From the IMG/VR virus record IMGVR_UViG_3300025383_000009: DNA of 64,000 nucleotides. The stretch is one strand, 5' to 3'. Below the pieces are notes generated by a model. The model saw only the letters and a list, made by a program, of their open reading frames with translations, had not been told where the DNA came from and searched no databases. The stretch comes from a virus. Taxonomy: Duplodnaviria > Caudoviricetes. Made by a program: the position numbers and the translations under genes. This document shows, piece after piece, positions 25,457 through 45,429 of the stretch; the first letter of the stretch is position 1; each line of letters opens with the position of its first letter.

Positions 25457-25464
25457 TATTTATA
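25457..25464 (-). promoter_or_regulatory. T4 late-type promoter upstream of nrdA
   Basis: TATAAATA. Confidence 0.55.
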
Positions 25465-29197: not shown

Positions 29198-29205
29198 TAT
29201 TTATA
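29198..29205 (-). promoter_or_regulatory. T4 late promoter
   Basis: TATAAATA upstream of the GT gene. Confidence 0.7.
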
Positions 29206-29917
29206 ACGACAGGGCTTGATCCTGTACATCTTTTTTGTATCGAGCCATCTTGTCTAAGTAACCTTGATTACGTAGTTCCTTAAACACTAGGTTCTCGAAT
29301 GAGAATTCACCACCTTTTAGGATGGCAGCGCCTCTCATGTCTCTTAGTTTATCCTTGAGGTTATTGAATGCTTCTACATCCATCTTGTTCTTGATCATAT
29401 CATCGATCATATCCATATAGAACTTAATCTTCTTCTTAAGGTATGGGTTCTTTAGGAAATCATCACCAATGAATTCTGGCTTGGCGATCCATTCATCCTT
29501 TGTCAATGAATAGACACCTTGGTCTTTAGGGTATGCTACTGACTCATCTTGTGCATAAGGCTCAAGACCATATCCAAGGATGGTGATCTTATGGGCCATA
29601 GTCCACATGACTTTCTTATCTTGTAAGTAGTCGTCTAGTAATGGGTTATCTTTGGCAATCTCGGACTTATTAACAACCAAGTGAACATCAATATCAGATA
29701 GATCAGTATAGTTGTAGTTGGCGTTGCCGCCGAGCATGATAACTTCTTTAACTGCACTTTTAGGGATCTTAGCAAATTCTCTCCATGCTTCTGCAAACTG
29801 AAGTAGCTTGGCTCTTACTTCAGGCTTTAGTTGGTATTCGTTCCAGAGTTTTGGGTTTAGTTCGGTATGGTACTGTAGTTGAAGTTTTAACTCTGATATG
29901 TACTGAGCGTATTTCAT
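29201..29917 (-). CDS. Pol-beta-superfamily nucleotidyltransferase with CTS-like N-terminus
   Basis: GGNANYNYTDLSDIDVH; starts MKYAQYISE; GEFSFENLVFKELR. Confidence 0.75.
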   Translation of the reverse strand: MKYAQYISELKLQLQYHTELNPKLWNEYQLKPEVRAKLLQFAEAWREFAKIPKSAVKEVIMLGGNANYNYTDLSDIDVHLVVNKSEIAKDNPLLDDYLQDKKVMWTMAHKITILGYGLEPYAQDESVAYPKDQGVYSLTKDEWIAKPEFIGDDFLKNPYLKKKIKFYMDMIDDMIKNKMDVEAFNNLKDKLRDMRGAAILKGGEFSFENLVFKELRNQGYLDKMARYKKDVQDQALSL

Positions 29918-30297
29918 TTGAAAGTTTTATTAATCAACCAACCAATAACAACAGCTCCGCCGATGACTACCCAGCGCCATACTTCAAGGACTTTAACACG
30001 AGCATCGATGCCTTTAAGCTTCTCTTCTATAGCAGATTGGATCTTAGCATGACCTTCTATGCTGTTAGCCATAGACTGGTCTAGCTTCTTATTGATCTCT
30101 TTAGCTATGTTATCTATCTTTACGTGTATGTCTCTTATGTCGTCTTCGTTACGCACAGTATCTTTCTCTATGACATTTATTCTTGTATCATGTACAGCTA
30201 ATAGTTTACTAACATTATTACTAACTTCAGTAAGCTTATCTATCGATAAATCAAGCTTCTCAACTATACGTTCTAATTGTTCGAAATCATTTGCCAT
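29914..30297 (-). CDS. Coiled-coil protein with C-terminal TM (holin/hemolysin-like)
   Basis: Heptad pattern; WRWVVIGGAVVIGWL. Confidence 0.55.
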   Translation of the reverse strand: MANDFEQLERIVEKLDLSIDKLTEVSNNVSKLLAVHDTRINVIEKDTVRNEDDIRDIHVKIDNIAKEINKKLDQSMANSIEGHAKIQSAIEEKLKGIDARVKVLEVWRWVVIGGAVVIGWLINKTFK

Positions 30298-30886
30298 TAT
30301 AGATCTTTTCCTGTGATGTTACCCAGTCTTGTAGTGCTTTTAGTTGCTCTGATAACTGATGGTAGTTGTTATAGTTGATGCTTATTGTTTCTCCGACGGC
30401 AGAGAGATTAACTCCGGAGGCGGATCCATCAATTCCTTTGGAGGTGTCGGGAACTTCATTTTTTGCGGCAGAATCGTGGAGCAAGACAAAAGACTTAGGC
30501 ACACTGCACTTAGCATCAGACTCTTTAACATGTTGAGATAACTTCTTGATTTCATTACCCTTCTCCTTGATTACCTTTGTTTGTGTTACATATTTCGTTA
30601 CAATTTGTTTTGATCTCTTATCAGCTTCAGCAACCTTACGATCCATGTCAGCCTGAAGCTTCTCAGCTTCAGCTCTCCATAACATATCCTTAGAGTATGC
30701 ACCAGTAAAATAACAACCAACGCATAGTACTACTAATGATACCCATTTAAGTATGATGGCTGATAGCTTAACACCTGGGATATTACCGAGTATGGTGAAT
30801 ATTACAAATCCAATCCCACCTACACCCACTAACATCGTTGTTGCTTTTAATAACCATGCATCTGGAATAAATGATAATAAGAACAT
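30287..30886 (-). CDS. Spanin-like (Rz-type) membrane protein
   Basis: N-terminal TM helices, coiled coil, C-x-VP-x-FV-x-LHD, NYNNY..L..QL-ALQ-W. Confidence 0.55.
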   Translation of the reverse strand: MFLLSFIPDAWLLKATTMLVGVGGIGFVIFTILGNIPGVKLSAIILKWVSLVVLCVGCYFTGAYSKDMLWRAEAEKLQADMDRKVAEADKRSKQIVTKYVTQTKVIKEKGNEIKKLSQHVKESDAKCSVPKSFVLLHDSAAKNEVPDTSKGIDGSASGVNLSAVGETISINYNNYHQLSEQLKALQDWVTSQEKIYNGK

Positions 30887-30887
30887 A

Positions 30888-31475
30888 TTAAAATACCTTG
30901 TTGTTTCGGCGCGCCATACTTACTGCACCTTGATTTGTCTTCTTATACTTATCTATGTCTTTCTTCTTGAGTAATGGTGTAGTAGCTGCATCTGTAGATG
31001 TCATCACCCCTGTTGCATTAGCTGGAGCTGCACCTGCACCACCTCCACCTGAAACACCACCACCTCCAGCACCACCATCTTCTTCAATGCTCTTGATGAA
31101 CTTTTCAAGAAGGATAGTTTCCTCAGCAAAGTAAACACCCATACCCATCAAAGTATGGAATCTTTGTTCCATCATTGATGTCGTCCTATCATTCTTTTCA
31201 TAATACTCTTTGATTAGGAAGTATGCTGTAACTAAACTCTTTAGCTTATTTTCTCCACCTGGCAGTTTGTTGATTATCTTCTTCATGTTAAAGACCAATC
31301 GATGTAGGAACGTGTACGCATTTCTTTGTTCACTCGTCGTGAAAAAAGATGGCTTTATGAGATTTTTTCCTTTTTTATCGATGATGCCAAGCTTAAAGGC
31401 ATCAGTCTCACTGAAGGGCTTAACCAACATGGTAAGTACTCTTAACGCTATTAAATTATCTATTACTTGTGACAT
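30888..31475 (-). CDS. Conserved T4-like late hypothetical protein
   Basis: AFKLGIID, YTFLHRLVFNMK; Gly-rich tail. Confidence 0.65.
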   Translation of the reverse strand: MSQVIDNLIALRVLTMLVKPFSETDAFKLGIIDKKGKNLIKPSFFTTSEQRNAYTFLHRLVFNMKKIINKLPGGENKLKSLVTAYFLIKEYYEKNDRTTSMMEQRFHTLMGMGVYFAEETILLEKFIKSIEEDGGAGGGGVSGGGGAGAAPANATGVMTSTDAATTPLLKKKDIDKYKKTNQGAVSMARRNNKVF

Positions 31476-31852
31476 TAAATCTTCCTAAGTATTTTTATTA
31501 TGTGTTCATCTAGCTTGACATCAGACATCTTTAGCTTGTGTTCTGGTAACTCATCTGGCATCCTGTTAAGGAATATCAAAAACGTTACTAAGTAACTCCA
31601 ATACTCTTCATCTATCTTAAAGAATAACATGTTTGTTGTTTGATCACCAAATAAGTTATATAGTACTATCAAGTGGTTAAGTATTAGGTTCTCTTTAAGA
31701 TCCCCTTCGCTCTTATACCTATTGAATAGCTTCTTTAAGTATAGAAACCTCTTAAGATCATCATTAAACTCTTCCAACGAATAGCATTGGGTATTGTCAT
31801 AATGATGCATCGCATAGGTTAAAAAATTATCATCTGTCAACAATTGGTCCAT
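31475..31852 (-). CDS. Conserved T4-like late hypothetical protein
   Basis: LTDDNF-YAMHHYDN-C-EEF-DLKRF, LILNHLI. Confidence 0.65.
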   Translation of the reverse strand: MDQLLTDDNFLTYAMHHYDNTQCYSLEEFNDDLKRFLYLKKLFNRYKSEGDLKENLILNHLIVLYNLFGDQTTNMLFFKIDEEYWSYLVTFLIFLNRMPDELPEHKLKMSDVKLDEHIIKILRKI

Positions 31853-31855
31853 ATT

Positions 31856-31878
31856 AAAAGAGGGGAGTTAACCTCCCC
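31856..31878 (-). terminator. Rho-independent terminator
   Basis: GGGGAG-GTTAA-CTCCCC followed by TCTTTT on the minus strand. Confidence 0.7.
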
Positions 31879-31885
31879 CACTTAG

Positions 31886-32830
31886 TTAAGCTGTTACTGT
31901 TAATGTTACTGCGTTAGAGATAGCATTTGTATTAGCTGTATCAGTACCACAGATTACACGGATCTTCATACCAGTATCACCTACAGCTAGATGGCCAGAA
32001 TTAATACCTAATGTATTAGTATTATAGCCCTTCCATGCTGCACCGCTGATGTTAGTCCATGTAGTACCACCATCAGTACTTTGTTGCCATTGGTATGTTA
32101 AGCTATTATAAGCACCAGTTGCAGCAGAAGTTACTGTGAATAATGCATCAACTCCAGCATTTGCTGCAGCTGTAGCGTTAACCGGTTGTGCAGTAATGAT
32201 TGTAGTAGCATCAAGTAATACTGAATCGTCAGCTGTACCTGTTGCACCAGAAGCACCTTTAGCTGGGTTAGCATCACCTGTTACTGATTGTGTTTGTGCT
32301 GAGCCCATAGCTATTAAGATCTCTGATTTATGACGTACGTTACCGTTAGAGTCTGTATATGATACATACTCAACCCAACCTGGTGTCTTAAGACCACGAC
32401 CACGGTTTTCAGCGTTTGAAGCTTCGTCTACGTCTTCGAAGTATAAACCTCTACCGTTGTAGTTATGGTCATTAACGTTAGCTTCACCAGTACGTTGTAG
32501 TGTTTGAACGCCAACACCAGCACCTGTTAAGTTAACTTTACCTGTAGCACCACCCGCGATAGCATTAGCTTGTGTATCATAAAGACTGATAATACCTGAT
32601 GTAGCTGTAAGACCTACATAGTAAGTTTTACCGTCTGTTAAGCCACCGATGACTGTACCACCATTGATTGAATATACAACACCGTCGCCCTTAGCGAAGT
32701 CAGTGTTTGCACCCGTTAAATCTATTGTTTCTGCTGTAGTATTAACAGTCGTTGCACTGTTAAAGTACGCAATCCTTGCGACATACTTAGGCTTTGAAGC
32801 CTGATTGTCGTGATTTCCCCATAAAGCCAT
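31886..32830 (-). CDS. Virion structural protein with C-terminal Ig-like domain
   Basis: MALWG, PGWVEY-YTD-G-RHKSE; ITAQP...LTYQWQ...W...AVTLTV; late promoter upstream. Confidence 0.65.
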   Translation of the reverse strand: MALWGNHDNQASKPKYVARIAYFNSATTVNTTAETIDLTGANTDFAKGDGVVYSINGGTVIGGLTDGKTYYVGLTATSGIISLYDTQANAIAGGATGKVNLTGAGVGVQTLQRTGEANVNDHNYNGRGLYFEDVDEASNAENRGRGLKTPGWVEYVSYTDSNGNVRHKSEILIAMGSAQTQSVTGDANPAKGASGATGTADDSVLLDATTIITAQPVNATAAANAGVDALFTVTSAATGAYNSLTYQWQQSTDGGTTWTNISGAAWKGYNTNTLGINSGHLAVGDTGMKIRVICGTDTANTNAISNAVTLTVTA

Positions 32831-32855
32831 TTTATTACTCCTTAATTAGATTAGT

Positions 32856-32863
32856 TATTTATA
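32856..32863 (-). promoter_or_regulatory. T4 late promoter
   Basis: TATAAATA. Confidence 0.75.
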
Positions 32864-35441
32864 CTCTAGCACCTGACTTAGATCCCGCTGGTCTGCCACG
32901 TCCGCGTTTCTCTTTTGTTTCATCATCAGGTTTCTCATCAGTCTCATCATCTTTTTGATTAGCACCACCATACGCTGTACCTTTAACTAGATTGATATGC
33001 GGATGGCTTGTATCTGGTTTAAACTTAGGATCATACGCTGATTGACTAGCTTGTCTTAACTTCTGAGCGTCTCTTAAGTCATCGATCTTACCTTCATCCA
33101 TAACTGCTAAAGTACCTTTAACGTATGGAGACATTTCTTGTGAAACTTCTTCTTTAACACCAGAAGCTTTATGAATTTTCTCATGAGCTTTGCTTGATTG
33201 ACGTAATGCAGCATCATCAGATCGAGAAGCTTTTCCATCATCCATATTATCATAATGATATCTTTGTTTAAGATGATGAGCTACTGACTTTTCAACATCC
33301 TTACCAATGCCCTTATCACCTAGCTTTTTAGAAGCTCTTGCTAAACCTGTTAATCTATTTTGAAGTGGTTTATGACCATATTTTCCTTGATTATTTTTTC
33401 CACCTTGAATTTCAAGTTCATGTCTTGTAGGTGTTCCACTATCATATGCATCATGTGCTTTATCTTGAGCATCATCCGTAGCTTTATGAGCATATGAACC
33501 TAAAGTCTTTTTAGATAATTCATCAATCTGTGTTAACTTTTCTTCGATGCGTTCTACTTCTTCTTTAGATAATGATTGCATACCACGTTGAGCTAAAGCT
33601 TTAGCACGATCCATACCTTTACCAGGTTCTACTGGTTTCTTGAAGTGAGTATCTGCTTGTTGTGCAGTCTTATGACCGGCAACAATAGCAAGTTCTTTAC
33701 CTGAGATACCATGTTGTTTACCAACTGTCTCATAATCTGTAGGTGTAAACTGTTTATGACTTGAGTAACCCTTCTTGGTAGCATGATCCATCATGTCAGT
33801 ATAGATGTCTTTCATCTTGCCTTCATCGATCTTACCTTCATCCATAACTTGTAGTGTAGCTTTAAGGTATGGTGATATCTCTTGTGAAACTTCTTCTTTA
33901 ACAGGGTTACCAGTCTTAGGATCTAACTTAGTAACTTTACTAAAGTAATGTGAGTGTTGTTTCATTGCATCTGAAGATTTTACTGGTTTAGCCATTGAAT
34001 CATTTTTAGACCAACCGTCTTTAGGAAAACGCATTTCGTCCTCACACATTTCGCCTTCGTTAACACCAGCTGCTTTCATGAACTTAGCATGATCGAAGCG
34101 TGGGTTTTGTTTAGCGAAGATACCTGCATGATGTGTAGCAAGTTCTTTACGTTTCTCTGCAGATTCGTGACCTTTAATAAGATCAGCAACCATTTGGAAG
34201 TCTTTACGTGTAGTAGCTTCTTCTAATTCTACTTCTTCTTTAGCAATCTTCTTGCCAGCTCTTTCTAAACCTGACATCCTGTTAGAAGCACGACGACCAT
34301 GCTCTGATGCTTCTGGAGCATCATCATTTTCTTCTGCATCACGCTCATTATGGATAGACGATGCTAAATCTGATGAAGCTTTCTTAACGTAGTTACCTAA
34401 AGTCTTATTAGATAACTCATCGATCTGTGTTAACTTCTCTTCGATGCGTTCTACTTCTTCTTTGGATAATGATTGCATGCCGCGTTGAGCTAAAGCTTTA
34501 GCACGATCCATTTCATGGCCTTTTTCTACTGGCTTCTTGAAATTTGTAGGATCGTAATGATGTTTAGGATGACCATAGTGTTTATGGAACTCGTCATGAC
34601 CCATGTTTTGTAAGTCATAAGCAAGTTCTTTCATCTTACCTTCATCTAACTGAACGTCTTCTTTTAATTTGTCAACAGCTTTATCATGGCCTTTCTCACG
34701 CTTCCATGCTTGAGATTGGTATTTGCCAGCAAGACTATCCCATGTTTCTTTCTTTCTTGGGTTTCTTGCATGTGCAGCTTTACTCTTAAAGTCTGCAGCT
34801 ACATGTTGTTTGATACGTGCATCATGTGAAGCTTTCTTAGTATATGATGCTAATGTGTCTTTTGATAACTCATCGATCTGTTCTACTTCTTCTTTTTGTA
34901 CTTTAACAGGGTATGTTTTACCTTGGAACTCAAACTCTTTCTTACCCTCTTTATGAGCTGCATGAGCTGCCATACGGAGACCTGATTCGTCTACGTCTGC
35001 CTCTGACATCTTAGCTTTACCAGCTTGTGCAGACCAAGATTCTTTAACATGCTTTTTCTCTAATCTTTCAGCTTTTAATCTATGATACTCAGATGCTCTT
35101 TCATGACCAAAATATGAACCATGTTCTTCTTGATTAGCTGGACTTAAGTGATGTTCACCGGATTCTGATTCATGATGAAAAATTCGTGCTTCATCATGAT
35201 GAGTCTCCATGTGTTTATGATAAGCATGCATGTCACCTTTTTTCTTTGCAGCTTCAGCTTTTTCTTTATGCTTAGTGATCTCATGAGCCCATTTATTAAT
35301 GTCTTTAGCTTCACCATGTTCAGCACCGCTATCATAATCAGATCTCTTTGTAGATAAAGGTTCATGTTTCCAATGAGAATCTTTAATATTCTCCTCATTG
35401 AGCTGTACATTTTCCTTTAAAAAATCATTGAACTTTAACAT
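32859..35441 (-). CDS. 860-aa modular His-rich protein with CTS-like N-terminus (putative internal-head polyprotein)
   Basis: Starts MLKFNDFLKE; repeated (K)EEVE-x-IDE-LSKxTLxSY modules. Confidence 0.7.
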   Translation of the reverse strand: MLKFNDFLKENVQLNEENIKDSHWKHEPLSTKRSDYDSGAEHGEAKDINKWAHEITKHKEKAEAAKKKGDMHAYHKHMETHHDEARIFHHESESGEHHLSPANQEEHGSYFGHERASEYHRLKAERLEKKHVKESWSAQAGKAKMSEADVDESGLRMAAHAAHKEGKKEFEFQGKTYPVKVQKEEVEQIDELSKDTLASYTKKASHDARIKQHVAADFKSKAAHARNPRKKETWDSLAGKYQSQAWKREKGHDKAVDKLKEDVQLDEGKMKELAYDLQNMGHDEFHKHYGHPKHHYDPTNFKKPVEKGHEMDRAKALAQRGMQSLSKEEVERIEEKLTQIDELSNKTLGNYVKKASSDLASSIHNERDAEENDDAPEASEHGRRASNRMSGLERAGKKIAKEEVELEEATTRKDFQMVADLIKGHESAEKRKELATHHAGIFAKQNPRFDHAKFMKAAGVNEGEMCEDEMRFPKDGWSKNDSMAKPVKSSDAMKQHSHYFSKVTKLDPKTGNPVKEEVSQEISPYLKATLQVMDEGKIDEGKMKDIYTDMMDHATKKGYSSHKQFTPTDYETVGKQHGISGKELAIVAGHKTAQQADTHFKKPVEPGKGMDRAKALAQRGMQSLSKEEVERIEEKLTQIDELSKKTLGSYAHKATDDAQDKAHDAYDSGTPTRHELEIQGGKNNQGKYGHKPLQNRLTGLARASKKLGDKGIGKDVEKSVAHHLKQRYHYDNMDDGKASRSDDAALRQSSKAHEKIHKASGVKEEVSQEMSPYVKGTLAVMDEGKIDDLRDAQKLRQASQSAYDPKFKPDTSHPHINLVKGTAYGGANQKDDETDEKPDDETKEKRGRGRPAGSKSGARV
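33079..33902. repeat. ~80-bp imperfect direct repeat (33079-33158 and 33823-33902)
   Basis: Both copies encode KEEVSQE-SPY-K-TL-VMDEGKID. Confidence 0.85.
33499..34541. repeat. 146-bp near-identical direct repeat (33499-33644 and 34396-34541)
   Basis: Both copies encode KPVE...MDRAKALAQRGMQSLSKEEVERIEEKLTQIDELS-KTLG. Confidence 0.9.
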
Positions 35442-35442
35442 A

Positions 35443-38166
35443 TTAATATCCCTCTCTTCTTAGTTTTTTAGCGGCATCAATGATGCGTTGGTTATGTTTT
35501 GAAATCTTGCCTTTAATGCCAGCTTTTTCTGCAGGATGTTCTGCTGCTGCATGTTGTTTATGAAGCTCATGAGCATGTGTCAATGACTTACCCATATAGT
35601 CTGTCCACTTTTCATCAGTAGGCATGTTTGCTTCTGCGACTCTTTCTATGTCTGCAGTCCTGATACCAAACATCTTACGATGTTGAGATTTATGTTTACC
35701 ATACTTCTTAAAGTATTTGAGGCTATCTAAGTTTTTCATATCGTCCTCAACGTTCTTTGTTAAGAAGCCTTCTTTCATACCCATCATCTTTTTCTTTTGT
35801 TCTGCATCCTTCTTAGGAGTCTCTATGCCTTTATCAGCAGGGTTGTTTTGACCTGTAAAAGCTCTCTGTGCAACTTCTCTATTCTTAAAAAAGTTAGCAA
35901 GTACTTTATGACCTCTTGACTCTTCAACTTCTTCCTTCTTCATGACTTTAGATTGTGTCTTAACTTGCATGGTTTTAGGTTTAACTTGTGATCCTGGAAT
36001 ACCATCATGATGATGGGCTTCTGTTAATGATTTATGCGGTACAGATGTCTTTTGTGTACCATATGAACCACCATGGAAGTGTACTGTATCATTGTCACGT
36101 GTAGCTTTCCATTTACGACCTGTCTCATCTTTAAATGAATGAGATTCACCATGTTTTAACTTAGCGATTGGCTCATGGTGTTCAGGATGTAGTGGGATCG
36201 AGAATGATTTACCGTGGTTAACAGTCTTCATTGTACCCCAATCATACTTACGTGATGACACTGTTGCTTCTTCGATATGTTCTACCTCTTCTTTTTGTGT
36301 GCCAAGCTTCTTAGTAGCACGGTCAATACCAGCGATACGTTTGTTTGCTTTCTTAAAGTCTGCATAAGACTTCTTAGAGTGTTTCTCTGCAGCTTCCCAG
36401 TCACCAGCTCTTGTATAGTGTGATGCCCATTCTCCAGCTTCTTTACCTGCATAAGTATGGGAACCAACATCTCTTGATGCTTTAGGAATGTATCTCATAA
36501 GTGTTGACTTAGATACTTCATCGATCTGTACTGATTCACCAATAGTATGAGCTAACTTATGTCTTTTAGCAAATTTTTGTGCTTGTTCAACATGATCTGC
36601 ATGTCCATGAAATTTACCTGATTTATCAATATTATTTTTAATATGATTTAAATCGCGTGACATCACTTTAACATTAAAATTAGATTTGTTATGATCCAAT
36701 TCTTTATCTACAGCATCATGAAATTTAGCAGGTTCATGAAATGTAATAGATTTTGCTTCATCGATCTGCTCTTCTTTAAGTGATCTCTCTGCACGCTCAT
36801 CACCTTTAACTCTATTTGATAGCTTACGCATATCATCTTTAGCAGTCTTCTTATAAGGGCTTTGATGGATAGCATAAGCACGATTCACGTCCTTAGCAGC
36901 TTTATCTCTGTAAGATTGGTATGTGCTCTTCTTTAACTCGTCAAGGTTAACTACTTCTTCTTTAGTTAATTTTTGTTTAGGTGTAACTGTTTGTCCTGCA
37001 GTTGCAGCATCATAAGCTTGACGTATAGTCTTATACTTAGATGGGCCACCTTCAACTGGAACTCCATTTCGTGTTGCACCACCACCTGCTTGTACTTTAA
37101 TTGGTTTAGTAGCGACCATCTTCTTAGTGATAGGATCGTATACTTTAGATTCGTCTAACTCTACGTCTTCTTTAGCGAGTTTTTGTTTTGCTTTATAAAC
37201 ACCATCTGCACGATTAAGATACTTCTTATCAAGATGTTTCATTTCAGGTGTATCATCAGAGAATTTACCATGTGTTTTGTCTCTAATATCTCTGAGTTTA
37301 GAATAGTTTTGTTGATACTTATCTTCTTCCTTCTCAGCTTTCTTAACATAAGAACCTAAAGTCTTCTTTGAGATCTCGTCGATTTGTTCAACTTCTTCTT
37401 TTAATTTAGCTACTCTATGTTTGTGCATCTTAACTATATCACCGCTAGCAGTTTTAATATGCCACATATCACCAGTACGTTCTTTTGATGAACCAACAAC
37501 TGTGCCGTGTTTACCAGAATCAAGACCAGAACCAGCTAATACAGCAGCTTTATGACCAACTGCTACTTTAGCATCACGATCGATAGGGCCATGTTCATAT
37601 CCTTCTTTAAAATCTTTAACTTCTTTTTTCTTTTGTGTTAAAGGGATAGGAGGATTTAAAACCTTTTTCTTGTCAACTACATCTGTACCGATACCTTTAT
37701 ACTCAATAGCTTCTGAAAGGTGTGCATCACATGATTTATGTGGACACTTATTAACATGATGCATGAAGTTTTGTGCATGTTCTTTTGATGGGAATTTAAA
37801 GAATACACCTTTATCAGATCCACCTGCATGTTCACCACCATGTTGTTTAACACCAGCCATGACATGCTCTACATCTTTTTCATGTGGTTGTTCATCGTAC
37901 TTAGAACCATCAGATACATGTACTAAATGCTCTTCTTTAGCTTCTCTCATGTCAACTTCTGCTGTAGAATTTTGTGATACTGCAGCTGACTCTTCTCTTT
38001 GTTTAGAATAGTATGCTGCGAGTGCCATTTGTTTACGCTTTGCAGCAGACTTACCTGCAAACTTAGGATTATCTGAGTGTACAAAGTCATCTATCCACTT
38101 ACCAGCTGGTGTGGACTTGGTTAAGATCTCATCTAGTCTTTGTGTTAGGTCTTTGTACGACTTCAT
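35443..38166 (-). CDS. 907-aa modular His-rich protein with CTS-like N-terminus (putative internal-head polyprotein)
   Basis: Starts MKSYKDLTQRLDE; linkers EEVEQIDE, EDVELDE, EEVVNLDE, EEQIDE, ESVQIDE, EEVEHIEE. Confidence 0.7.
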   Translation of the reverse strand: MKSYKDLTQRLDEILTKSTPAGKWIDDFVHSDNPKFAGKSAAKRKQMALAAYYSKQREESAAVSQNSTAEVDMREAKEEHLVHVSDGSKYDEQPHEKDVEHVMAGVKQHGGEHAGGSDKGVFFKFPSKEHAQNFMHHVNKCPHKSCDAHLSEAIEYKGIGTDVVDKKKVLNPPIPLTQKKKEVKDFKEGYEHGPIDRDAKVAVGHKAAVLAGSGLDSGKHGTVVGSSKERTGDMWHIKTASGDIVKMHKHRVAKLKEEVEQIDEISKKTLGSYVKKAEKEEDKYQQNYSKLRDIRDKTHGKFSDDTPEMKHLDKKYLNRADGVYKAKQKLAKEDVELDESKVYDPITKKMVATKPIKVQAGGGATRNGVPVEGGPSKYKTIRQAYDAATAGQTVTPKQKLTKEEVVNLDELKKSTYQSYRDKAAKDVNRAYAIHQSPYKKTAKDDMRKLSNRVKGDERAERSLKEEQIDEAKSITFHEPAKFHDAVDKELDHNKSNFNVKVMSRDLNHIKNNIDKSGKFHGHADHVEQAQKFAKRHKLAHTIGESVQIDEVSKSTLMRYIPKASRDVGSHTYAGKEAGEWASHYTRAGDWEAAEKHSKKSYADFKKANKRIAGIDRATKKLGTQKEEVEHIEEATVSSRKYDWGTMKTVNHGKSFSIPLHPEHHEPIAKLKHGESHSFKDETGRKWKATRDNDTVHFHGGSYGTQKTSVPHKSLTEAHHHDGIPGSQVKPKTMQVKTQSKVMKKEEVEESRGHKVLANFFKNREVAQRAFTGQNNPADKGIETPKKDAEQKKKMMGMKEGFLTKNVEDDMKNLDSLKYFKKYGKHKSQHRKMFGIRTADIERVAEANMPTDEKWTDYMGKSLTHAHELHKQHAAAEHPAEKAGIKGKISKHNQRIIDAAKKLRREGY

Positions 38167-38168
38167 TC

Positions 38169-38627: not shown

Positions 38628-38629
38628 AT

Positions 38630-40402
38630 TTATTTTCTCTCGGTTTGCTGTCTCATCCATGAATCATAATCTAGGAGAGTATTAAGGTTTTCTTTTTTAA
38701 TCTTCTTTTCAAAGAAAGCACTAAAGCCTTTGCCTTTTTGTTTATTTGGTTCATCATCTGCTGGTGGTGCCATATTAGCTGGTAGTGGTACAACCTTAGT
38801 AACCTTTTGGCCTTCTACTTCACCGTCTGCCGACTCCTGTGTATACTCGCCGTCTTTTGTGATGTAGCATTCTTTACCGTACTTCTTACCAGCTGCTCCA
38901 GCTTCTCCTCTTGATTTATGAGGGCCAGATAAGATATCGTTTGACGCTGTACATCTTACGTAGTAACCAGCTTCGTGTTCAGGTTTGATCTGTACACCTG
39001 CTGTCTCGTTCTTTGTCATCACAGACTCAGTAGCATACATGACTTTACGTCTACGTAGGTGACGATCTGTCTCTAGTGTATGACCAACTTCGGTATGTTT
39101 ATGGAACGGGTACTTTTGTAAATCATCGATCTGCTGTGAGATGTTAGGGTCTAAGACTTGCTTGATCTCTTTGTCATCAGGTATGATGCCTTGGTTCATC
39201 TTATGTAGTTTCATGAAGTCAGAGTATCTTAATACGTCTTGAGCTATGTTATAGGTGTTAGATACGCCTTCCTTGATAGTCATCTTATCAAGCTCGGCTT
39301 TATGTTTTTCCCAATGTTCTTTGTGAGAATCAAAGCATCCTAGTTTCTCTAGTGATTCTCTTGACTTCTTATGAGCTTCTTGAGCATCCTTAACATGTTT
39401 AAAGCCATATAGTTCTGGCTTGGACGGGTCGAAGTCATAGATCTTAAGGTATGCATCAGTTGTCTTGATAGCATTTAACATAGCAACTGGATCTGTAGCT
39501 TTGTCCATAGTTAGTTTAAAGGCTTTTGAGCCTTGTGGACAATGATGCATATTAGTTGTCGTGTAGCCTTTGTAGGAGATCTCATGACCTTCGTTGACCT
39601 CTACTTGCTCAGGCACACAGTTAGGGACTGTCTTACCATTTTTCTTTTTAAGGCCGATAGCCTTGTAGCCTTTCCAACATGCTTTAGATAGGGACTTAGC
39701 TTCTACTAATGACACATCCTTCACCCATTTCCTATGTAAGGTGCCAGTGTTATCAACTACGACTAGGTAGTTTGATCCACGGTCCATGATCTCGTACTGA
39801 TGACCAGCAGACTCAACGATGTCACCCACATGGTAGATCTCACCTTTAAAGTACTTCTCTCTAAGTATGTCTACTGAGAACTTGATATCTTCTTTGATTA
39901 GTTCAAGACCTTGGACTTGTCTCATCTCGTTCATGATCCTACGAGCGTCAAGTTCACGTACCATTGATGGCAGTTGTTTCTTAAACGATGTAAAGTCACC
40001 CTTGGTGACCATTGATTTGATCTTTGAGAAGTCAACGTCATTGCCTGTGGTGACAACGTTCATTGACTCGTATAGCTTGGCTTTATCTTCTGAAGCAACT
40101 ACGATGACATCCTTGTACCTCTTCTTAAGAGCTGTTAGTTCAGAAGCAAAGTTTGACTCGTTCAATGCCTTAAAGTTCATTGAACCAAACATCATCTCAA
40201 GGAAGTGTAGCTTACGATCTACTGGTAGGCTATCCTTGTCTTCTGTAACATAGATTATGTGGTCGGCAGAGTTTGACTCAACTAGCTTATGGACTAGCTT
40301 AAGAGTCATCTCAGTGACCGAGGTAGGCGGGTTAAAGCTTCCGACTGTCATGATGACGGTCTTAGAAGGCAATTCCCGTATGAGTTGTCTATAGTTCTTC
40401 AT
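38630..40402 (-). CDS. CTS-bearing modular protein with degenerate cytidylyltransferase-like N-domain
   Basis: Starts MKNYRQLIRE; GSFNPPT without the catalytic His; SH3-like segment; CWKGY...VPNCVPE module. Confidence 0.65.
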   Translation of the reverse strand: MKNYRQLIRELPSKTVIMTVGSFNPPTSVTEMTLKLVHKLVESNSADHIIYVTEDKDSLPVDRKLHFLEMMFGSMNFKALNESNFASELTALKKRYKDVIVVASEDKAKLYESMNVVTTGNDVDFSKIKSMVTKGDFTSFKKQLPSMVRELDARRIMNEMRQVQGLELIKEDIKFSVDILREKYFKGEIYHVGDIVESAGHQYEIMDRGSNYLVVVDNTGTLHRKWVKDVSLVEAKSLSKACWKGYKAIGLKKKNGKTVPNCVPEQVEVNEGHEISYKGYTTTNMHHCPQGSKAFKLTMDKATDPVAMLNAIKTTDAYLKIYDFDPSKPELYGFKHVKDAQEAHKKSRESLEKLGCFDSHKEHWEKHKAELDKMTIKEGVSNTYNIAQDVLRYSDFMKLHKMNQGIIPDDKEIKQVLDPNISQQIDDLQKYPFHKHTEVGHTLETDRHLRRRKVMYATESVMTKNETAGVQIKPEHEAGYYVRCTASNDILSGPHKSRGEAGAAGKKYGKECYITKDGEYTQESADGEVEGQKVTKVVPLPANMAPPADDEPNKQKGKGFSAFFEKKIKKENLNTLLDYDSWMRQQTERK

Positions 40403-40988
40403 TTTTTGTCGCCAGTTTTTTGCTTAATATTGTTGCTGCTATTTTAGCTTTAGTTTCTTCAGACCTTGGCACTCCTTTAAATGCTGCAGATATTTTAGCT
40501 TTAGTTTCTGCGGAACGTGGAGATCCTTTTACCCAAGGGCATGATTTACCTCTTTTAGCTTCTGACATTTTCTGTTTTGTTTGTTCAGCAATAATTTTGC
40601 CTTTAGCTGAATTAGACATATTTGTTCTTTGTTTTTCAGTATAAATTTTACCTAATTTAGCTTTAGATTGTTTTTCTCTTGTTAACTTAGTAACTATTAT
40701 ACCGCTAGTACCTTCTCCACCATCTGTCATATTATATAATAACCCGGTTCCAAGATCTTTACGACCCCACCAACGGATCATACGACGTTCAAGAGCTAAA
40801 GCTCCAATCTCAGTAAGATTAGTTTCTAGTAGTATTATTTTATTCTTGTCTTTAGGCACTTTAATTCGGCCGTGTGTTTCATACGCACGATCGTTTTTAC
40901 CCTTACCAATATAGTAAGGAATGCCTTTTTTACTTAGATAGGCATATATGTAATATATAGTGCCTAATGGGCTGGGTTTATTCTTCAT
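40389..40988 (-). mobile_element. Free-standing GIY-YIG homing endonuclease with NUMOD3-like repeats
   Basis: YIYAY...YYIGKGK-RAY, YNMTDGGEG, repeated SEETKAKI; AT-rich relative to flanks. Confidence 0.88.
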
Positions 40989-41017
40989 TTAAATCCATCT
41001 ATATAAAAGTATATTAT

Positions 41018-41025
41018 TATTTATA
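41018..41025 (-). promoter_or_regulatory. T4 late promoter upstream of the homing endonuclease
   Basis: TATAAATA overlapping the upstream stop codon. Confidence 0.7.
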
Positions 41026-41257
41026 CTACAGAAAGTATCGTTTTTGTAATATTCACGACCCATCTTGCAGTTACCTCATCTTGTGCAAGCTCTGCGTTAG
41101 CTTGGACGTTACCAATCTCGGTAACTAGATCCTTATACTCTACGTCTGTAAGTATGCCATCATTGTATTGCTCTGTGATGTCATGTAACTGTTGAGCTAA
41201 TGCGCCTTTGATTCCCGGCTCTGCCATGGCAGATCTTAATTCGGTTAAAACACTCAT
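41021..41257 (-). CDS. 78-aa helical protein, paralog of 13761-13997
   Basis: ITEQ, L-D-EY--LV-EI, DE---RW; ATGA coupling. Confidence 0.75.
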   Translation of the reverse strand: MSVLTELRSAMAEPGIKGALAQQLHDITEQYNDGILTDVEYKDLVTEIGNVQANAELAQDEVTARWVVNITKTILSVV

Positions 41258-41610
41258 GATCTTCCTTTCCATGCTGACTCAATCACTTGAAGACGAGTCC
41301 TATTAAGTTTAATGGTGGCTTCACAGTATGCTGGGCTTCCGTCTCTAGCTTTTTGTGCTGCGATGTAGAACTCAGTTACTGCCTTCTGTTGAGGGTCATC
41401 CCTCCATGCTGTATATACATCCAACCAACGGGCATCCTCAATAAGCTTTGCCCAGTCAACTTCTTTCTTATCATTGCAAGATACCTTCTCAATATCTACT
41501 TTAAGGTCTGTAAGCTTGGCTGCTTCTGCAGTATCATGATGCTTGGGTAGTAGGTTAGTTATAGCACACCCATTCAATAGTAGTACACTTACTAATAGTA
41601 GTCTCTTCAT
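41254..41610 (-). CDS. Lipoprotein, paralog of 13994-14350
   Basis: Lipobox LNGC; RDDPQ. Confidence 0.75.
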   Translation of the reverse strand: MKRLLLVSVLLLNGCAITNLLPKHHDTAEAAKLTDLKVDIEKVSCNDKKEVDWAKLIEDARWLDVYTAWRDDPQQKAVTEFYIAAQKARDGSPAYCEATIKLNRTRLQVIESAWKGRS

Positions 41611-42221
41611 TACTTGCTCCCTTGTTGTACGTCATGCATTAGTTCTTTTGCATGTTTATCTGATACATGCTCTGGTACACCCTTACGAAACTCATGGAAG
41701 TTACCTGATTTTGCATGCTCTCTTTGTTTAGTGCCTGATACGCCTGATGTACCCTCAGAATCTGGATCTCTATGACCAGCAGAGTGTACTGTTATCTTCT
41801 TAAAGTTATAATGCCCGTGTCCGGCTTTCTTGTTATTATACCTATTTAACAGCGTCGTCATCTCCTTCTTACGATCTGATCCTACCACAACATGTAGGTG
41901 AGTTACACCTTTCTTATGTAGATCAGCTGCATGGTGTAATATGGTTGGATGCTCGGCAGATGATGCCTTAATGTTTGTCTTAGGTGAGAAGCGTTTAAGG
42001 TGTTTAAGCTTTTGCTCTGGTGATAGTGGGTTCTTTTTCTTATCATGGCTATGTGATGTCACCACTGTATGACCAGCTTCATGTTTATCAGCCACGTCAT
42101 GGACCTTCTTGATAAGTGAAAGATGACCAGTCGTAGGAGGGTTCATACGACCATAAGTCAATACATGATGCTTAGCACCAGTATCCTCTGTGATAAAATC
42201 TTTTAGACTTAGCAATTCCAT
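41610..42221 (-). CDS. Cytidylyltransferase/NMNAT-like (HxGH-class) nucleotidyltransferase with CTS-like N-terminus
   Basis: GRMNPPTTGH, VVGSDR, SAGHRDPD, VSGTKQR; starts MELLSLKDFITE. Confidence 0.78.
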   Translation of the reverse strand: MELLSLKDFITEDTGAKHHVLTYGRMNPPTTGHLSLIKKVHDVADKHEAGHTVVTSHSHDKKKNPLSPEQKLKHLKRFSPKTNIKASSAEHPTILHHAADLHKKGVTHLHVVVGSDRKKEMTTLLNRYNNKKAGHGHYNFKKITVHSAGHRDPDSEGTSGVSGTKQREHAKSGNFHEFRKGVPEHVSDKHAKELMHDVQQGSK

Positions 42222-42484
42222 TTTCTTAAAGCTAATGCCTTCCTTGTTGGTTTGCCATGTTCATCCTTCATAGGACCTTTAACTCCACCCATACGAGCGC
42301 AGAAAGACTTACGTCGTCCTGCAGCCTTACCACCTTTTTTAAGTTTGGATGGTGGTGTTGTTACAGCCATTTTTAAATGATGACCAGGATTCTCTCTGTT
42401 ATACTTATCTACACCAGCACGGGTTAAACCACCGGTCTCTGACTTGTACTTGTCTTCTTTAAGGTACTCTTTAAACGTTAGCAT
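42209..42484 (-). CDS. Small basic CTS-bearing protein (GGLT...RRKSFCARM family)
   Basis: Starts MLTFKEYLKE; RRKSFCARMGG, LALRKWNC. Confidence 0.7.
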   Translation of the reverse strand: MLTFKEYLKEDKYKSETGGLTRAGVDKYNRENPGHHLKMAVTTPPSKLKKGGKAAGRRKSFCARMGGVKGPMKDEHGKPTRKALALRKWNC

Positions 42485-43661
42485 TTGGTTTACGGTTCCT
42501 CATTAAGTTTGCACGACTAAACTCAGCTCTATCTACAAGCTTTGTTGGTTCGTTCTTATGGTTAACTACATAGCCTTCTGGATGTGTCTCCTTACCTTCA
42601 ATGTGATGGCTTAGAGTTCCAGGATGTTGGTTCAATGTCTTTACCAATACGTTCTTTGCTTTTTGGATATGCTGATGCATCTTCAATAAGTTCTCGTATG
42701 AGCTTGCATGCTTATTGATATGGTTAATTTCTTGCTGTGCACCGCGTTGCTTCTCTTCTGCAGCCTTTGTAGTCTTAAGCCTTGATTGGACGATCTGTGA
42801 TTTGTCCATGACATGTTGCTGTAAGCCTCTTACTGTTGGCTTTGCGTTGTTTCGTACTGTTTGGTTGATGTATGTAGCTAGATGACCAGATGCACCTTGA
42901 TGTGGCTCAGTAGCAGCATACATAGTCTTCTTATGTTCGTCATGGATCTTTTGTGCAGCATCCATATGTTTATGAAACTCTTGTTGAGCTTTGTCTCCAT
43001 AGTTTATGATACGTGTATCATGCTCAGCAGTCTTATGCCATACATCTGGATGCTGTCTGAACTTATGCTCGATCTCAGGGCTTGCCTTCATATCACCTAT
43101 ATCTCGACCATGATACTGCTGATGGACGACTACGCCAACCTTTGCTTTCTTAACTTTATTAGCTTCTTGTCCATGAGCTGAGTAGGTAATGGTATTTGGA
43201 GTAAACGAAGTTGATCCGTTTGGATTATGAACCACATCATGATGACTAAACATCATGTCGCCTTGATAGACACCTTTCTTAGGAGTTACCTTTGGTAGAT
43301 GTGTTAATGCATCTTTAAGTTTTTGCACAAGACCTGGAGCATGACCATGATTTCTTTCAATGTCTTCAGGCGTATGGTTAATCTTAGGGTTCTTATTGAA
43401 TGCAGACTTGGTAGCTACAAAGAACTTACCCGTCTTTGGATGATGACCGAATACGATCGCTGGTGAGCCATCATACTTCATCGTTAGGCTTTTATCCTTC
43501 TTACCAGACTTGATATGCTCAGACGCTTGGTTCAATGCACCCTTTGCATGCTCAAAACCTTTGGCTCCATTGATAAGAGGTCTATCCTCAGGATGGGCTA
43601 TATGTGATACTTTGCCCTCTGTAGATATAGCTTCTGTTAAGTATTGTGAAAATGATATCAT
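42471..43661 (-). CDS. RNA-ligase-like nucleotidyltransferase with CTS-like N-terminus
   Basis: Ligase motif I KYDG, FVATK, YQGD, motif IV EGYVV, motif V KLV; starts MISFSQYLTE. Confidence 0.6.
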   Translation of the reverse strand: MISFSQYLTEAISTEGKVSHIAHPEDRPLINGAKGFEHAKGALNQASEHIKSGKKDKSLTMKYDGSPAIVFGHHPKTGKFFVATKSAFNKNPKINHTPEDIERNHGHAPGLVQKLKDALTHLPKVTPKKGVYQGDMMFSHHDVVHNPNGSTSFTPNTITYSAHGQEANKVKKAKVGVVVHQQYHGRDIGDMKASPEIEHKFRQHPDVWHKTAEHDTRIINYGDKAQQEFHKHMDAAQKIHDEHKKTMYAATEPHQGASGHLATYINQTVRNNAKPTVRGLQQHVMDKSQIVQSRLKTTKAAEEKQRGAQQEINHINKHASSYENLLKMHQHIQKAKNVLVKTLNQHPGTLSHHIEGKETHPEGYVVNHKNEPTKLVDRAEFSRANLMRNRKPNANV

Positions 43662-43662
43662 A

Positions 43663-44754
43663 TTATCTTAATGTAAATGTTCCTGCAGTACCTTTATGCG
43701 GACCTGATGTTGATTTAAAAGTCTGTGTAGCTACAGCTTTAACTTTACCATGATCTTTATGACCAGGATTATGGTATGTACCATGGATCGTAGCGCTGAT
43801 GCCACCATGTTTAACATGTAAGTTCTTAAAGTGTTTAAGGTGTTCGTCAGCTATGTGCTCTGAATCATGGACATGTGATGTAGCGGATCCATCATCATGT
43901 ACATGGCTATGAGCTACAAGGTGCTTGAACTTAGTTGGAGGGGATACTTGATCTCTAATATGCTTCCTAAGTTCTGAATCAGACTTCTTAGATAATCCTT
44001 TTGCGTGCTCCTTAGCCATAGCCGTTCTTACAGCAATAGATGATTGTTCAGCTTCATGGGCGCGCTTAGCATCTTTAGACTTTGGTTTAAATTCACCCGT
44101 ACCTTTATGTGCTTTCTTTTCTGCTTCTAACTTAGCTTTATCCATCTTATAGTGTTCGTGTCTTTGCTGTGTAGTACCGTGATAGCCAATAATTTGCATA
44201 TTGTTTTCATGGGCTTTTTGGAGTTTAGTATAGATCCCATGTTTACCTGAATGCTTTTCAAGTGATGCTAGTCCAGCATTCTTAAAATTAGGTTGAGCGT
44301 TTGAACCATACTTTGCTGATATCGGATGGAAATGTTTCTTACCTTTCTTATCATGAGAAGTTACTATCACGTCTGCGTTTGAGTTAACATCCTTATGACC
44401 TGTGGTCTTTTCATGATCTCCAGCTTTTTTCTCTGTGTCTCTGTTGGAAGTCCAATGAACTGCATGGATAGTATGACCTTTTGGGATATGTTTCTTTATC
44501 TCACCTGCAGTTTGCTTAGCATGTTTGTCTATCTCTTTGTATGCTGCATCACCAATCTTTTTCTTTAGTTTAGTGTGTACTTGTTCAGGTGTTCCAGAGT
44601 GTTCAGGGTTATCTGACACAGCTCTATGGTGTTCAGGGAGTTTACCTTTTGGATGGAGATGCTTAGCTAATAATAATTCATGCATCTTACCTTTATCATC
44701 AGCGGCCACTGAAGAGGTTGCAGATTCTACTAAAAAGTCATTAAAGCTTAACAT
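43663..44754 (-). CDS. His-rich CTS-bearing protein, possible PD-(D/E)xK nuclease
   Basis: Starts MLSFNDFLVE; G-x-x-E...NADVIV...ISAKY. Confidence 0.5.
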   Translation of the reverse strand: MLSFNDFLVESATSSVAADDKGKMHELLLAKHLHPKGKLPEHHRAVSDNPEHSGTPEQVHTKLKKKIGDAAYKEIDKHAKQTAGEIKKHIPKGHTIHAVHWTSNRDTEKKAGDHEKTTGHKDVNSNADVIVTSHDKKGKKHFHPISAKYGSNAQPNFKNAGLASLEKHSGKHGIYTKLQKAHENNMQIIGYHGTTQQRHEHYKMDKAKLEAEKKAHKGTGEFKPKSKDAKRAHEAEQSSIAVRTAMAKEHAKGLSKKSDSELRKHIRDQVSPPTKFKHLVAHSHVHDDGSATSHVHDSEHIADEHLKHFKNLHVKHGGISATIHGTYHNPGHKDHGKVKAVATQTFKSTSGPHKGTAGTFTLR

Positions 44755-44763
44755 ACATCTTCC

Positions 44764-45363
44764 TTATTTTATCGTGGTAACAGAGCCATCTTCCTTGGCC
44801 ATGTATGCCTCAAAAGTTATAGATGGGAACTCTTTCTTTAGTTTTAAAAATTCTTTTAGGTTACTCATACTGTCATCAAATAGTCTTACCCTTGAGAACT
44901 GTCTTGTCTTAAGGTAGTTCCTAATGATAATAGCTTTCTTAAAAGCTGGGATCATTTGCCCTTCGATCCTACCGGCTCTCTCGATCCTAACCTTATTTAT
45001 TGGAAACCCATACTTACTAAAAGTAGCAAGTACTTTGTTCTTATCATCAAAGTTATTCCTAGCTGTGATGATGACTACTTTACTATTAGGTGTATTAGCT
45101 GCGTTCTTAGCGATGGCTCTAGCTTTGTTAAACATCTTAGAGATCGGTGTAGACTCTTTAAGAAACTTCTCGGAGCTAGCAAATTGGGTGAAGTCAAACT
45201 TCTCCCCTGGCTTCAACTTATAATCGTTGAACTGTTGGTTGGTGAGTGTCTTTACTACCTGCCCATTCTTGACCACTCCTACTTGTGCCGTAGTCTTGAA
45301 TAAGGTATCATCTATATCAAATATAGTAAGACCACCATTTAGGTTTTGTAATTCTTCAGCCAT
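44764..45363 (-). CDS. HAD-superfamily phosphatase
   Basis: FDIDDTLF, IITAR, LFDDSMSNL. Confidence 0.8.
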   Translation of the reverse strand: MAEELQNLNGGLTIFDIDDTLFKTTAQVGVVKNGQVVKTLTNQQFNDYKLKPGEKFDFTQFASSEKFLKESTPISKMFNKARAIAKNAANTPNSKVVIITARNNFDDKNKVLATFSKYGFPINKVRIERAGRIEGQMIPAFKKAIIIRNYLKTRQFSRVRLFDDSMSNLKEFLKLKKEFPSITFEAYMAKEDGSVTTIK

Positions 45364-45391
45364 GATCCATCGATAAAAGTAAATTATTAAT

Positions 45392-45399
45392 TATTTATA
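45392..45399 (-). promoter_or_regulatory. T4 late promoter heading the CTS cluster
   Basis: TATAAATA just downstream of the gp41 terminator. Confidence 0.78.
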
Positions 45400-45401
45400 A
45401 T

Positions 45402-45426
45402 AAAAAAAGGCTACCGAAGTAGCCCT
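45402..45426 (-). terminator. Rho-independent terminator after gene 41
   Basis: GGCTAC-TTCG-GTAGCC + T7 (UUCG tetraloop). Confidence 0.9.
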
Positions 45427-45429
45427 TTG

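Follow-up and report, generated by a model that had tools for sequence, protein, structure and literature searches.

In the 64,000-nucleotide (nt) stretch of an uncultured T4-like phage analysed here (IMG/VR record IMGVR_UViG_3300025383_000009; the whole stretch is hereafter called the window), eight proteins encoded on the minus strand were found to begin with a short leader resembling the capsid targeting sequence (CTS) of phage T4. The genes lie in a block that occupies the interval between the gene for the gp41 helicase and the genes for primase and ribonucleotide reductase (nrd). The most probable reading, to which we give about three chances in four, is that these leaders serve as T4-type capsid targeting sequences and that the cargo proteins behind them are loaded in the head, cut and shipped with the DNA. 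Capsid targeting sequences and injected internal proteins (IPs) are textbook knowledge for T4, described for a few small proteins of the T-even coliphages. In the block examined here, the 10-residue address is apparently kept in a very distant, environmentally abundant branch of T4-like phages, on large enzymes of unrelated folds. DNA and protein searches of phage records recovered distant relatives only, with about 30% protein identity, and the closest isolates are marine T4-like phages (Kyanoviridae) such as Methylophilales phage Melnitz, Pelagibacter phage HTVC008M, Prochlorococcus and Synechococcus myoviruses, and a few others. The same layout of the gp41-primase interval is found in Melnitz, P-RSM6, S-SM1 and S-CREM2.

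Identification of the N-terminal leader

The eight CTS-like N-termini that a first-pass annotation of the sequence had listed are all present at the minus-strand genes concerned (Table 1). Their start codons are secure, with in-frame stops located 2-13 codons upstream and no space left for longer N-termini, and purine-rich ribosome-binding stretches precede most of the eight starts. A strict pattern, ^M..[FY]..[FYL][LI].E, was set as a conservative rewrite of the T4 CTS MKTYQEFIAE (PMC8442874), and a relaxed pattern as its register-free version; the expected number of matches was computed from the frequency of the motif core at internal positions. Among the 95 non-overlapping open reading frames (ORFs) of the window, on which all ORF statistics are based, the strict pattern was matched by five against 0.02 expected (P ~3e-11) and the relaxed pattern by seven against 0.15 expected. 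Motif enrichment had been named as a check by the first-pass annotation, together with the claim that no early or replication gene begins in this way, and both are borne out: every strict or relaxed match is located within 29201-44754, and none of the other 87 ORFs, those for replication included, carries the leader.

Altogether, five of the eight leaders are exact, two are register-shifted and one is a variant of 13 residues. The leader of the 203-aa (amino acid) protein, MELLSLKDFITE, takes the canonical register when counted from the TTG at codon 3. The variant leader of the 907-aa protein, MKSYKDLTQRLDE, with Y4, L7 and then L11-D12-E13, misses both patterns, and the orthologues of this protein begin with MKSYKDMINE or MKSLKEFISQINE. 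When applied to T4 as a control, the strict pattern selected three of 267 ORFs, namely ipII, ipIII and gp61.1. Among the relatives, one of the 214 ORFs of S-SM1 and one of the 209 ORFs of Melnitz matched the strict pattern, and three of the 209 matched the relaxed pattern.

Conservation and modularity of the leader

Across hundreds of orthologues, residues 4, 7, 8 and 10 alone are conserved within the leader. For the DUF6267 protein (120 orthologues, 58-99% identity), F4, [FY]7, [LI]8 and E10 are near-invariant, and no constraint is seen at positions 2, 3, 5, 6 and 9; an alignment of 29 of its orthologues shows F4 and E10 without exception. The strict leader was also found in 84 of 120 orthologues of the nuclease-like protein of 363 aa, the rest being mostly near-matches. 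By amber-suppressor mutagenesis of T4 IPIII, residues 4 and 7 were assigned to capsid targeting and residues 8 and 10 to processing (review PMC9026906), and the conserved positions of the leader coincide with these functional positions of the T4 sequence.

The leader is also modular. Within a sample of 80 related IMG/VR loci taken around the DUF6267 gene, a total of 137 strict-leader ORFs were identified, all on the coding strand, against none among 651 ORFs on the opposite strand. After removal of the first 15 residues, these 137 ORFs fall into at least nine unrelated protein families. In this phage, the HAD phosphatase at the head of the block starts directly at its DIDDTL motif, without a leader, whereas its counterparts in relatives (loci L023-L102) begin with MLKFKEYITE or MLNFKEYIKE, so that a single protein has here acquired or lost the address tag. 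The orthologues of the nucleotidyltransferase (NTase)-like protein of 238 aa carry a 10-mer (for example, MKSFRRYLTE before MKLSLQ), a 6-7-mer (MKTLNE, MKKLISE) or no leader, and those without a leader start exactly at the conserved K-L-x-L-Q-Y. This natural deletion series indicates a domain boundary directly after the Glu.

A common N-terminus could also arise with no role in targeting, either from a constraint on translation initiation or mRNA or from a recombination junction copied among neighbours, given that the genes are adjacent and often overlapping and that the A/T-rich gene starts of phages favour codons for K, F, L, I and N. The leader DNA, however, argues otherwise: among 93 distinct leader DNA sequences, eight codons are used for L or I at position 8, and position 7 is written as TTT, TTC, TAC, TAT and others. 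Since the codons vary in this way, selection acts on the peptide and not on an RNA element. Conservation at the amino-acid level is confined to positions 4, 7, 8 and 10, with many synonymous or conservative codons, and the other positions are free; the motif is absent from the 87 other window ORFs and from the 651 opposite-strand ORFs; it matches the experimentally defined positions of the T4 CTS, and tagged orthologues are present in virions (see below). An origin of this kind is thus highly improbable.

Virion proteomes of cultured relatives

Mass spectrometry (MS) of purified S-SM1 virions recorded the "cytitidyltransferase" T4-GC190 with 25 peptide counts (Table S8 of Sullivan et al. 2010, PMC3037559), and the same table also lists T4-GCs 1453, 1454, 1455, 425 and 426 (PMC3037559). 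According to the S-SM1 record, all six are encoded in the gp41-gp61 block. T4-GC190 begins with MKKFSAFLNE and is 39% identical to the 203-aa protein of the window. The adjacent gene in S-SM1 codes for the DUF6267 orthologue (T4-GC71), which has no leader and was not detected by MS; this pair fits leader-dependent packaging. T4-GC15, an MS-positive structural protein of cyanophages, was considered as the DUF6267 orthologue and rejected, since its coordinates are those of a baseplate-region gene.

The virion proteome of S-CREM2 (Table 3 of PMC10665884) includes the cytidylyltransferase gp154, which begins with MKNFSSFLTE and is 35% identical to the 203-aa protein, and gp156, which begins with MKKLISE and is 49% identical to the 238-aa NTase-like protein over its full length. 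The authors of that study state that cytidyltransferases are often detected in cyanophage virions and suggest that the virions carry them (PMC10665884). In the literature searched, no paper was found that links cyanophages, or marine T4-like phages, with a capsid targeting sequence.

As virion MS is blind to position within the particle, the leader might direct its proteins elsewhere (to the tail or baseplate, to the cell membrane or to export, for example), and those detected in virions would then be located outside the head. The block does contain a lipoprotein-like ORF (41254-41610), a membrane-like ORF (30287-30886) and a virion protein resembling one with an S-layer domain. The leader is, however, too little hydrophobic to act as a signal peptide, and its last residues form the prohead-protease motif [LI]-x-E; the same class of sequence is necessary and sufficient for head packaging in T4 (PMC9026906), and gp21 of the relatives itself begins with a related LIAE motif. 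A destination outside the head is therefore considered improbable.

Predicted functions of the leader-bearing proteins

The coordinates of the leader-bearing genes, of other genes of the block and of the predicted transcription signals are listed in Table 1.

Table 1. Leader-bearing genes, neighbouring genes and candidate transcription signals in and around the gp41-primase block. Leaders, boxes and hairpin were read from the sequence.
Coordinates	Strand	Feature	Leader	Basis or position
45402-45427	-	Intrinsic-terminator-like hairpin GGCTAC-TTCG-GTAGCC + T run		Directly after gp41 stop
45392-45399	-	T4-type late-promoter box TATAAATA		28 nt upstream of ATG at 45363
44764-45363	-	HAD-type phosphatase (DIDDTL), first gene of the block		Weak polynucleotide-kinase PHROG phrog_415, E 9e-4
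43663-44754	-	363-aa basic protein (pI 9.7), HinP1I/MspI-type restriction-endonuclease fold	MLSFNDFLVE	AlphaFold2 (AF2) model and structure search
42471-43661	-	396-aa DUF6267 protein	MISFSQYLTE	Pfam PF19782, E 6e-96
42209-42484	-	91-aa DUF6321 protein, pI 10.2	MLTFKEYLKE	Pfam PF19846, E 7e-24
41610-42221	-	203-aa cytidylyl/adenylyltransferase-like enzyme, PPTTGH motif	MELLSLKDFITE	PF01467, E 1e-6
41018-41025	-	Second TATAAATA box		29 nt upstream of ORF 40389-40988
40389-40988	-	Homing-endonuclease-like ORF		phrog_314
38630-40402	-	590-aa protein	MKNYRQLIRE	phrog_395, phrog_3041
35443-38166	-	907-aa basic His/Lys-rich repeat protein	MKSYKDLTQRLDE	Six internal linkers; leader ends LDE
32859-35441	-	860-aa basic His/Lys-rich repeat protein	MLKFNDFLKE	Five internal linkers
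32856-32863	-	Third TATAAATA box		25 nt upstream of 31886-32830
31886-32830	-	Head-protein PHROG match		phrog_613, E 5e-27
29201-29917	-	238-aa nucleotidyltransferase-like protein	MKYAQYISE (9 aa)	Weak NTP_transf_2 (Pfam E 0.005); phrog_36119, E 6e-78
29198-29205	-	Fourth TATAAATA box		Overlaps stop of 29201-29917; 34 nt upstream of 28114-29163
25457-25464	-	TATAAATA box		32 nt upstream of nrdA (23640-25424)

The AlphaFold model of the 363-aa protein was obtained with a predicted local distance difference test (pLDDT) score of 92. In VIA-align, this model gave Z values of 9.9 with MspI and 9.2 with HinP1I over 200-204 residues, the next match being at 5.2, and Foldseek returned the MspI/HinP1I type at E 2e-4 with a probability of 1.0. 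In the orthologues, E26, D128, S146 and K148 are invariant, with the spacing D-X17-S-X-K. This spacing resembles that of the MspI/HinP1I active site, which we take to be D-X17/18-(N/Q)-X-K plus an upstream Glu, with Ser where the signature has Asn or Gln. As a separate observation on short palindromes in the relatives, the whole genome of S-SM1 (GU071094) contains no CCGG against 140 expected, and few GGCC, and in that of Melnitz (MZ577097) both GATC (23 against 498 expected) and CGCG (1 against 61) are strongly under-represented.

In VIA-align, each of the 21 best matches of the DUF6267 protein (AF2 model, pLDDT 84) is an RNA or DNA ligase domain (Z 6.0-8.6 over 150-210 residues), the highest being Naegleria RNA ligase (8.6), REL1 (8.3) and T4 Rnl2 (7.9); these Z values are borderline when taken alone, and the Foldseek matches are weak but coherent. 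Three elements are invariant in 29-32 aligned sequences including those of Melnitz, S-SM1 and P-RSM6, namely K62-x-D64-G65 (K-Y-D-G), E362-G363 and K374, and they correspond to ligase motif I (K-x-D-G), motif IV (E-G) and motif V (K), respectively, the lysine of motif I being the residue adenylylated in ATP-dependent ligases and related covalent nucleotidyltransferases. The OB domain is absent from the model, which has a helical insertion at residues 223-343 instead; a canonical gp30 DNA ligase with an OB domain is encoded separately (54046-55332). As modelled, DUF6267 is a ligase-type covalent nucleotidyltransferase fold without the OB domain.

For the 203-aa protein, the scores were 29.5 bits with PF01467 (cut-off 21) and 35.1 bits with TIGR00125 (cut-off 27.7), and its PPTTGH motif aligns with S-CREM2 gp154. 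The N-terminal third of the 590-aa protein is a paralogue of the 203-aa protein, of the HxGH type (BLASTP E 1e-6), and orthologues of the 590-aa protein begin with MKNYRQLIKE or MKSFLEIIKE. The DUF6321 protein is the most IP-like member of the block. Sequence searches against solved structures gave nothing useful for DUF6267, the 203-aa protein and the 590-aa protein, and no match was obtained in PADLOC and NCBIfam for most of the cargo proteins.

Repeat proteins of the block

The two largest leader-bearing proteins, of 907 and 860 aa, share repeat modules (BLASTP E 2e-12 between them) that are joined by linkers of the form EEV-x-[LI]-[DE]-E at a spacing of about 70-100 aa. This linker is present in 3-6 copies in the orthologues and in none of the other 17 proteins of the block. 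ESM Atlas look-ups were uninformative for both. The two are probably polyproteins that are cut by the prohead protease into small basic modules.

It is with these two that another explanation is most pertinent, in which the leader does target the prohead core and some or all of the proteins are parts of the assembly or scaffold, cut and expelled before packaging like T4 gp22, gp67 and gp68. Both are of low complexity and poorly modelled, their six and five linkers look like prohead-protease sites, and most core proteins of T4 are degraded and leave the head (PMC5694885; PMC8442874). The enzyme-like members of the set, however, hold just one or two [LI]-x-E sites; two of them were seen in mature virions of relatives (PMC3037559; PMC10665884), and the nuclease, the ligase-like enzyme and the nucleotidyltransferases have no obvious role in scaffolding. 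This explanation, be it for some or for all of the proteins, is judged unlikely. The first-pass annotation had supposed that more than 3,600 aa of protein are delivered at time zero. The lengths of the eight proteins do sum to 3,648 aa, but this figure is an upper bound and not a finding, because the five to six linkers of the giants may mean either cutting or scaffold-like expulsion.

Candidate late-promoter boxes and predicted terminator

The late promoter placed at 45392 by the first-pass annotation was found as a TATAAATA box ahead of the first ATG of the block, and three more boxes, at 41018, 32856 and 29198, divide the block further. Cyanomyoviruses use gp55-dependent late promoters of this kind. 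The placement of the boxes is non-random: for six of the nine TATAAATA sites of the window, a same-strand ATG follows after 25-38 nt. One of the boxes precedes nrdA, the gene for the large subunit of ribonucleotide reductase, so that in this phage boxes of the late type also stand before genes other than those of the virion. The hairpin at 45402-45427 would separate the gp41 replication gene from the block. As consensus matches, the boxes of the block and the predicted terminator fit transcription of the T4 late type.

Proposed pathway of packaging and delivery

The proposed sequence of events is as follows. Late in infection, the gp41-primase cassette would be transcribed, and during prohead assembly the aromatic residue 4 and the hydrophobic residue 7 of the leader would dock each product on the scaffolding core. 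The gp21-type prohead protease would then cut after the Glu of [LI]8-x-E10, leaving the mature protein inside the head, and the same protease would probably dice the two polyproteins at their [LI]-[DE]-E linkers. The pre-made cargo would stay with the DNA and be ejected at the next infection. This cargo would consist of the nuclease of HinP1I/MspI fold, the ligase-fold enzyme, two nucleotidyltransferases of the HxGH type, the NTase-like protein, the IP-like protein and the two polyproteins.

What we infer here is the docking on the core, the cut after Glu, the position within the head, the ejection and what the enzymes do. T4 gp21 cleaves C-terminal to Glu, for instance in Alt at ITE-6 and LTE-619 (PMC5694885). 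A gp21 (PF03420) was found in Melnitz, S-SM1 and T4, and that of the relatives begins with M-[RK]-L-I-A-E, i.e., with an I-x-E motif near its N-terminus. The size of the cargo is no obstacle, because in T4 even a protein of the size of beta-galactosidase, when fused to the CTS, is taken into the head and delivered (PMC9026906). The idea of the first-pass annotation that CTS-like N-termini mark packaged proteins is thus well supported, though indirectly, by the conservation of the functional positions, the modularity of the leader, the promoter boxes and the virion MS of two orthologues.

Several points weigh on the other side. The leader pattern was refined after the sequences had been seen. 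The support from virion MS reaches orthologues of only two of the eight proteins, both in relatives, and highly expressed proteins could co-purify with virions, as the authors of the S-CREM2 study pointed out (PMC10665884). The cytidyltransferase orthologue of Syn9 begins with MKKFSAFLSE and yet was not detected in the Syn9 virion proteome, which is smaller and of low coverage. Several MS-positive block proteins of S-SM1 have no canonical leader, so that the leader is not the sole route into the virion. The head genes and gp21 of this phage fall outside the window, and gp21 was not found in the nearest record, a fragment of 40.7 kb (G001). The total of nine TATAAATA sites in the window, against 7.9 expected, is not above chance. 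Finally, no avoidance of 4-bp palindromes was detected in the window (observed/expected 0.84 for GCGC and 0.90 for CCGG), and hence no hint of how the phage DNA would escape a packaged nuclease.

Taken together, a nuclease, a ligase-like enzyme and nucleotidyltransferases, joined in relatives by a HAD phosphatase that bears the tag, point with modest confidence to attack on nucleic acids, their repair, or both, at time zero. A more far-reaching and tentative proposal, which we hold to be possible but doubtful, is that the CTS has become a general dock for a "first-minute" toolkit in this widespread environmental T4-like lineage. In such a toolkit, the restriction-type endonuclease would act against unmodified DNA of the host or of competitors; the RNA-ligase-like enzyme and the nucleotidyltransferases, with the HAD phosphatase in relatives, would undo the damage of tRNA- or RNA-cleaving abortive-infection defences before phage expression begins, and the polyproteins would be diced into small basic peptides. 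If true, the delivery of a restriction enzyme and RNA-repair kit by a virion would be without precedent.

Comparison with known systems

As far as can be judged from sequence, the system would work like the combination of CTS, internal proteins and Alt in T4, and would differ in what it carries, in where it lies in the genome and in forming a conserved, core-like cassette within a distant environmental lineage. The likeness to the T4 CTS and internal proteins lies in the 10-residue leader with an aromatic residue at 4, a hydrophobic residue at 7, L or I at 8 and Glu at 10, with a predicted cut after [LI]-x-E. Six of the eight tagged proteins are basic (pI 8.7-10.2, five of them at least 9.4), as T4 internal proteins are, and the 91-aa DUF6321 protein is also of IP size. 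Unlike the case of T4, no similarity to the internal proteins is detected past the leader, the cargo is mostly large (200-900 aa) and enzyme-like, and the tagged genes are located in the gp41-gp61 interval and not at the ip loci. Moreover, the IP loci of T-even phages are hypervariable, whereas the tagged family described here is conserved across thousands of environmental T4-like phage sequences.

T4 itself has one ORF of this kind at the corresponding place: gp61.1, a hypothetical protein of 54 aa (NC_000866 18966-19130; L114:167-331) in the same gp41-gp61 interval, begins with MKTFKEFIKE, a strict match. A possible homology of gp61.1 to DUF6321 was considered and rejected, since the similarity ends after 19 residues and no Pfam match was obtained.

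The large enzyme Alt of T4, an ADP-ribosyltransferase present in about 40 copies, is packaged in the head via a short [LI]-x-E propeptide and is ejected with the DNA; the leaders of 6-7 aa in orthologues of the NTase-like protein (MKTLNE, MKKLISE) are much like its ITE-6 propeptide. The classes of enzyme differ, being here a nuclease fold, a ligase fold and nucleotidyltransferases. Among the cyanomyoviruses, the virion cytidylyltransferase (S-SM1 T4-GC190, S-CREM2 gp154) is orthologous to the 203-aa protein and shares both its block and its leader. The papers on this enzyme record its presence in virions and speculate on an NMNAT-like role; in the window, the leader is common to seven further proteins. 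A further parallel is offered by phiKZ and SPN3US, in which ejection proteins and a virion RNA polymerase, processed C-terminal to Glu by a T4-gp21-like protease, make up a large mass inside the head that includes several enzymes; for the proteins described here, the location in the head is the predicted one. The sites in phiKZ and SPN3US are of the form S/A/G-x-E, behind long and varied propeptides, in contrast to the uniform T4-type 10-mer with [LI]-x-E in this phage.

Confirmation of this reading would solve, in terms of mechanism, the puzzle of why "cytidylyltransferase" and other non-structural proteins keep turning up in cyanophage virions. It would also make it possible to predict, by a simple rule applied to the genome sequence alone, which proteins marine and freshwater T4-like phages eject, and would point to new counter-defence activities (nuclease, ligase-like enzyme, nucleotidyltransferases) acting at time zero. 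The natural leaders and the sizes of their cargo are also suggested to be usable in protein-delivery engineering of the T4 style.

Genomic setting and other genes of the window

The window has a G+C content of about 38%, with genes on the plus strand up to about 11.7 kb and on the minus strand beyond. Family searches identified replication genes of the T4 type, including those for the gp41 helicase (45430-46824; phrog_19, E 1.5e-127) and UvsX (47103-48185), together with genes for the sliding clamp, dNMP kinase, gp30 DNA ligase, thymidylate synthase and dCMP deaminase. The combination of the thymidylate-synthase-family gene, dCMP deaminase and dNMP kinase fits ordinary dTMP synthesis equally well as the idea of hydroxymethyl-cytosine.

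Some genes of the block carry no leader. The homing-endonuclease-like ORF, to which none of the 80 related loci holds a counterpart, was probably inserted recently, as a mobile element, between two tagged genes. The resemblance of the product of 31886-32830 to T4-GC425, the virion protein of S-SM1 with an S-layer domain, is confined to the N-terminus and was not confirmed by BLAST. A Dps/ferritin-like protein (38169-38660, minus strand; NCBIfam DpsA models, E 2e-10) is also encoded within the block, without a leader, and its orthologues begin with MDKLIASLKV. The lipoprotein-like ORF (MKRLLLVSVLLLNGC) and the ORF with a membrane or signal motif, both on the minus strand, are interspersed among the tagged genes.

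Outside the block, a 685-aa ORF at 11765-13822 (minus strand) combines in one protein a CHASE2 sensor domain (E 3e-36) and the catalytic domain of an adenylate/guanylate cyclase (E 1e-20), and a membrane sensor-cyclase of this type is unusual for a T4-like phage. A 421-aa ORF at 1209-2474 (plus strand) is similar to Druantia DruA/DUF4338 (Pfam E 8e-21; PADLOC E 2e-16) and is thus a phage-encoded homologue of a component of bacterial anti-phage defence. Auxiliary genes on the plus strand include those for peptide deformylase (640-1209; E 4e-36) and S-adenosylmethionine decarboxylase (9733-10089; E 5e-18).

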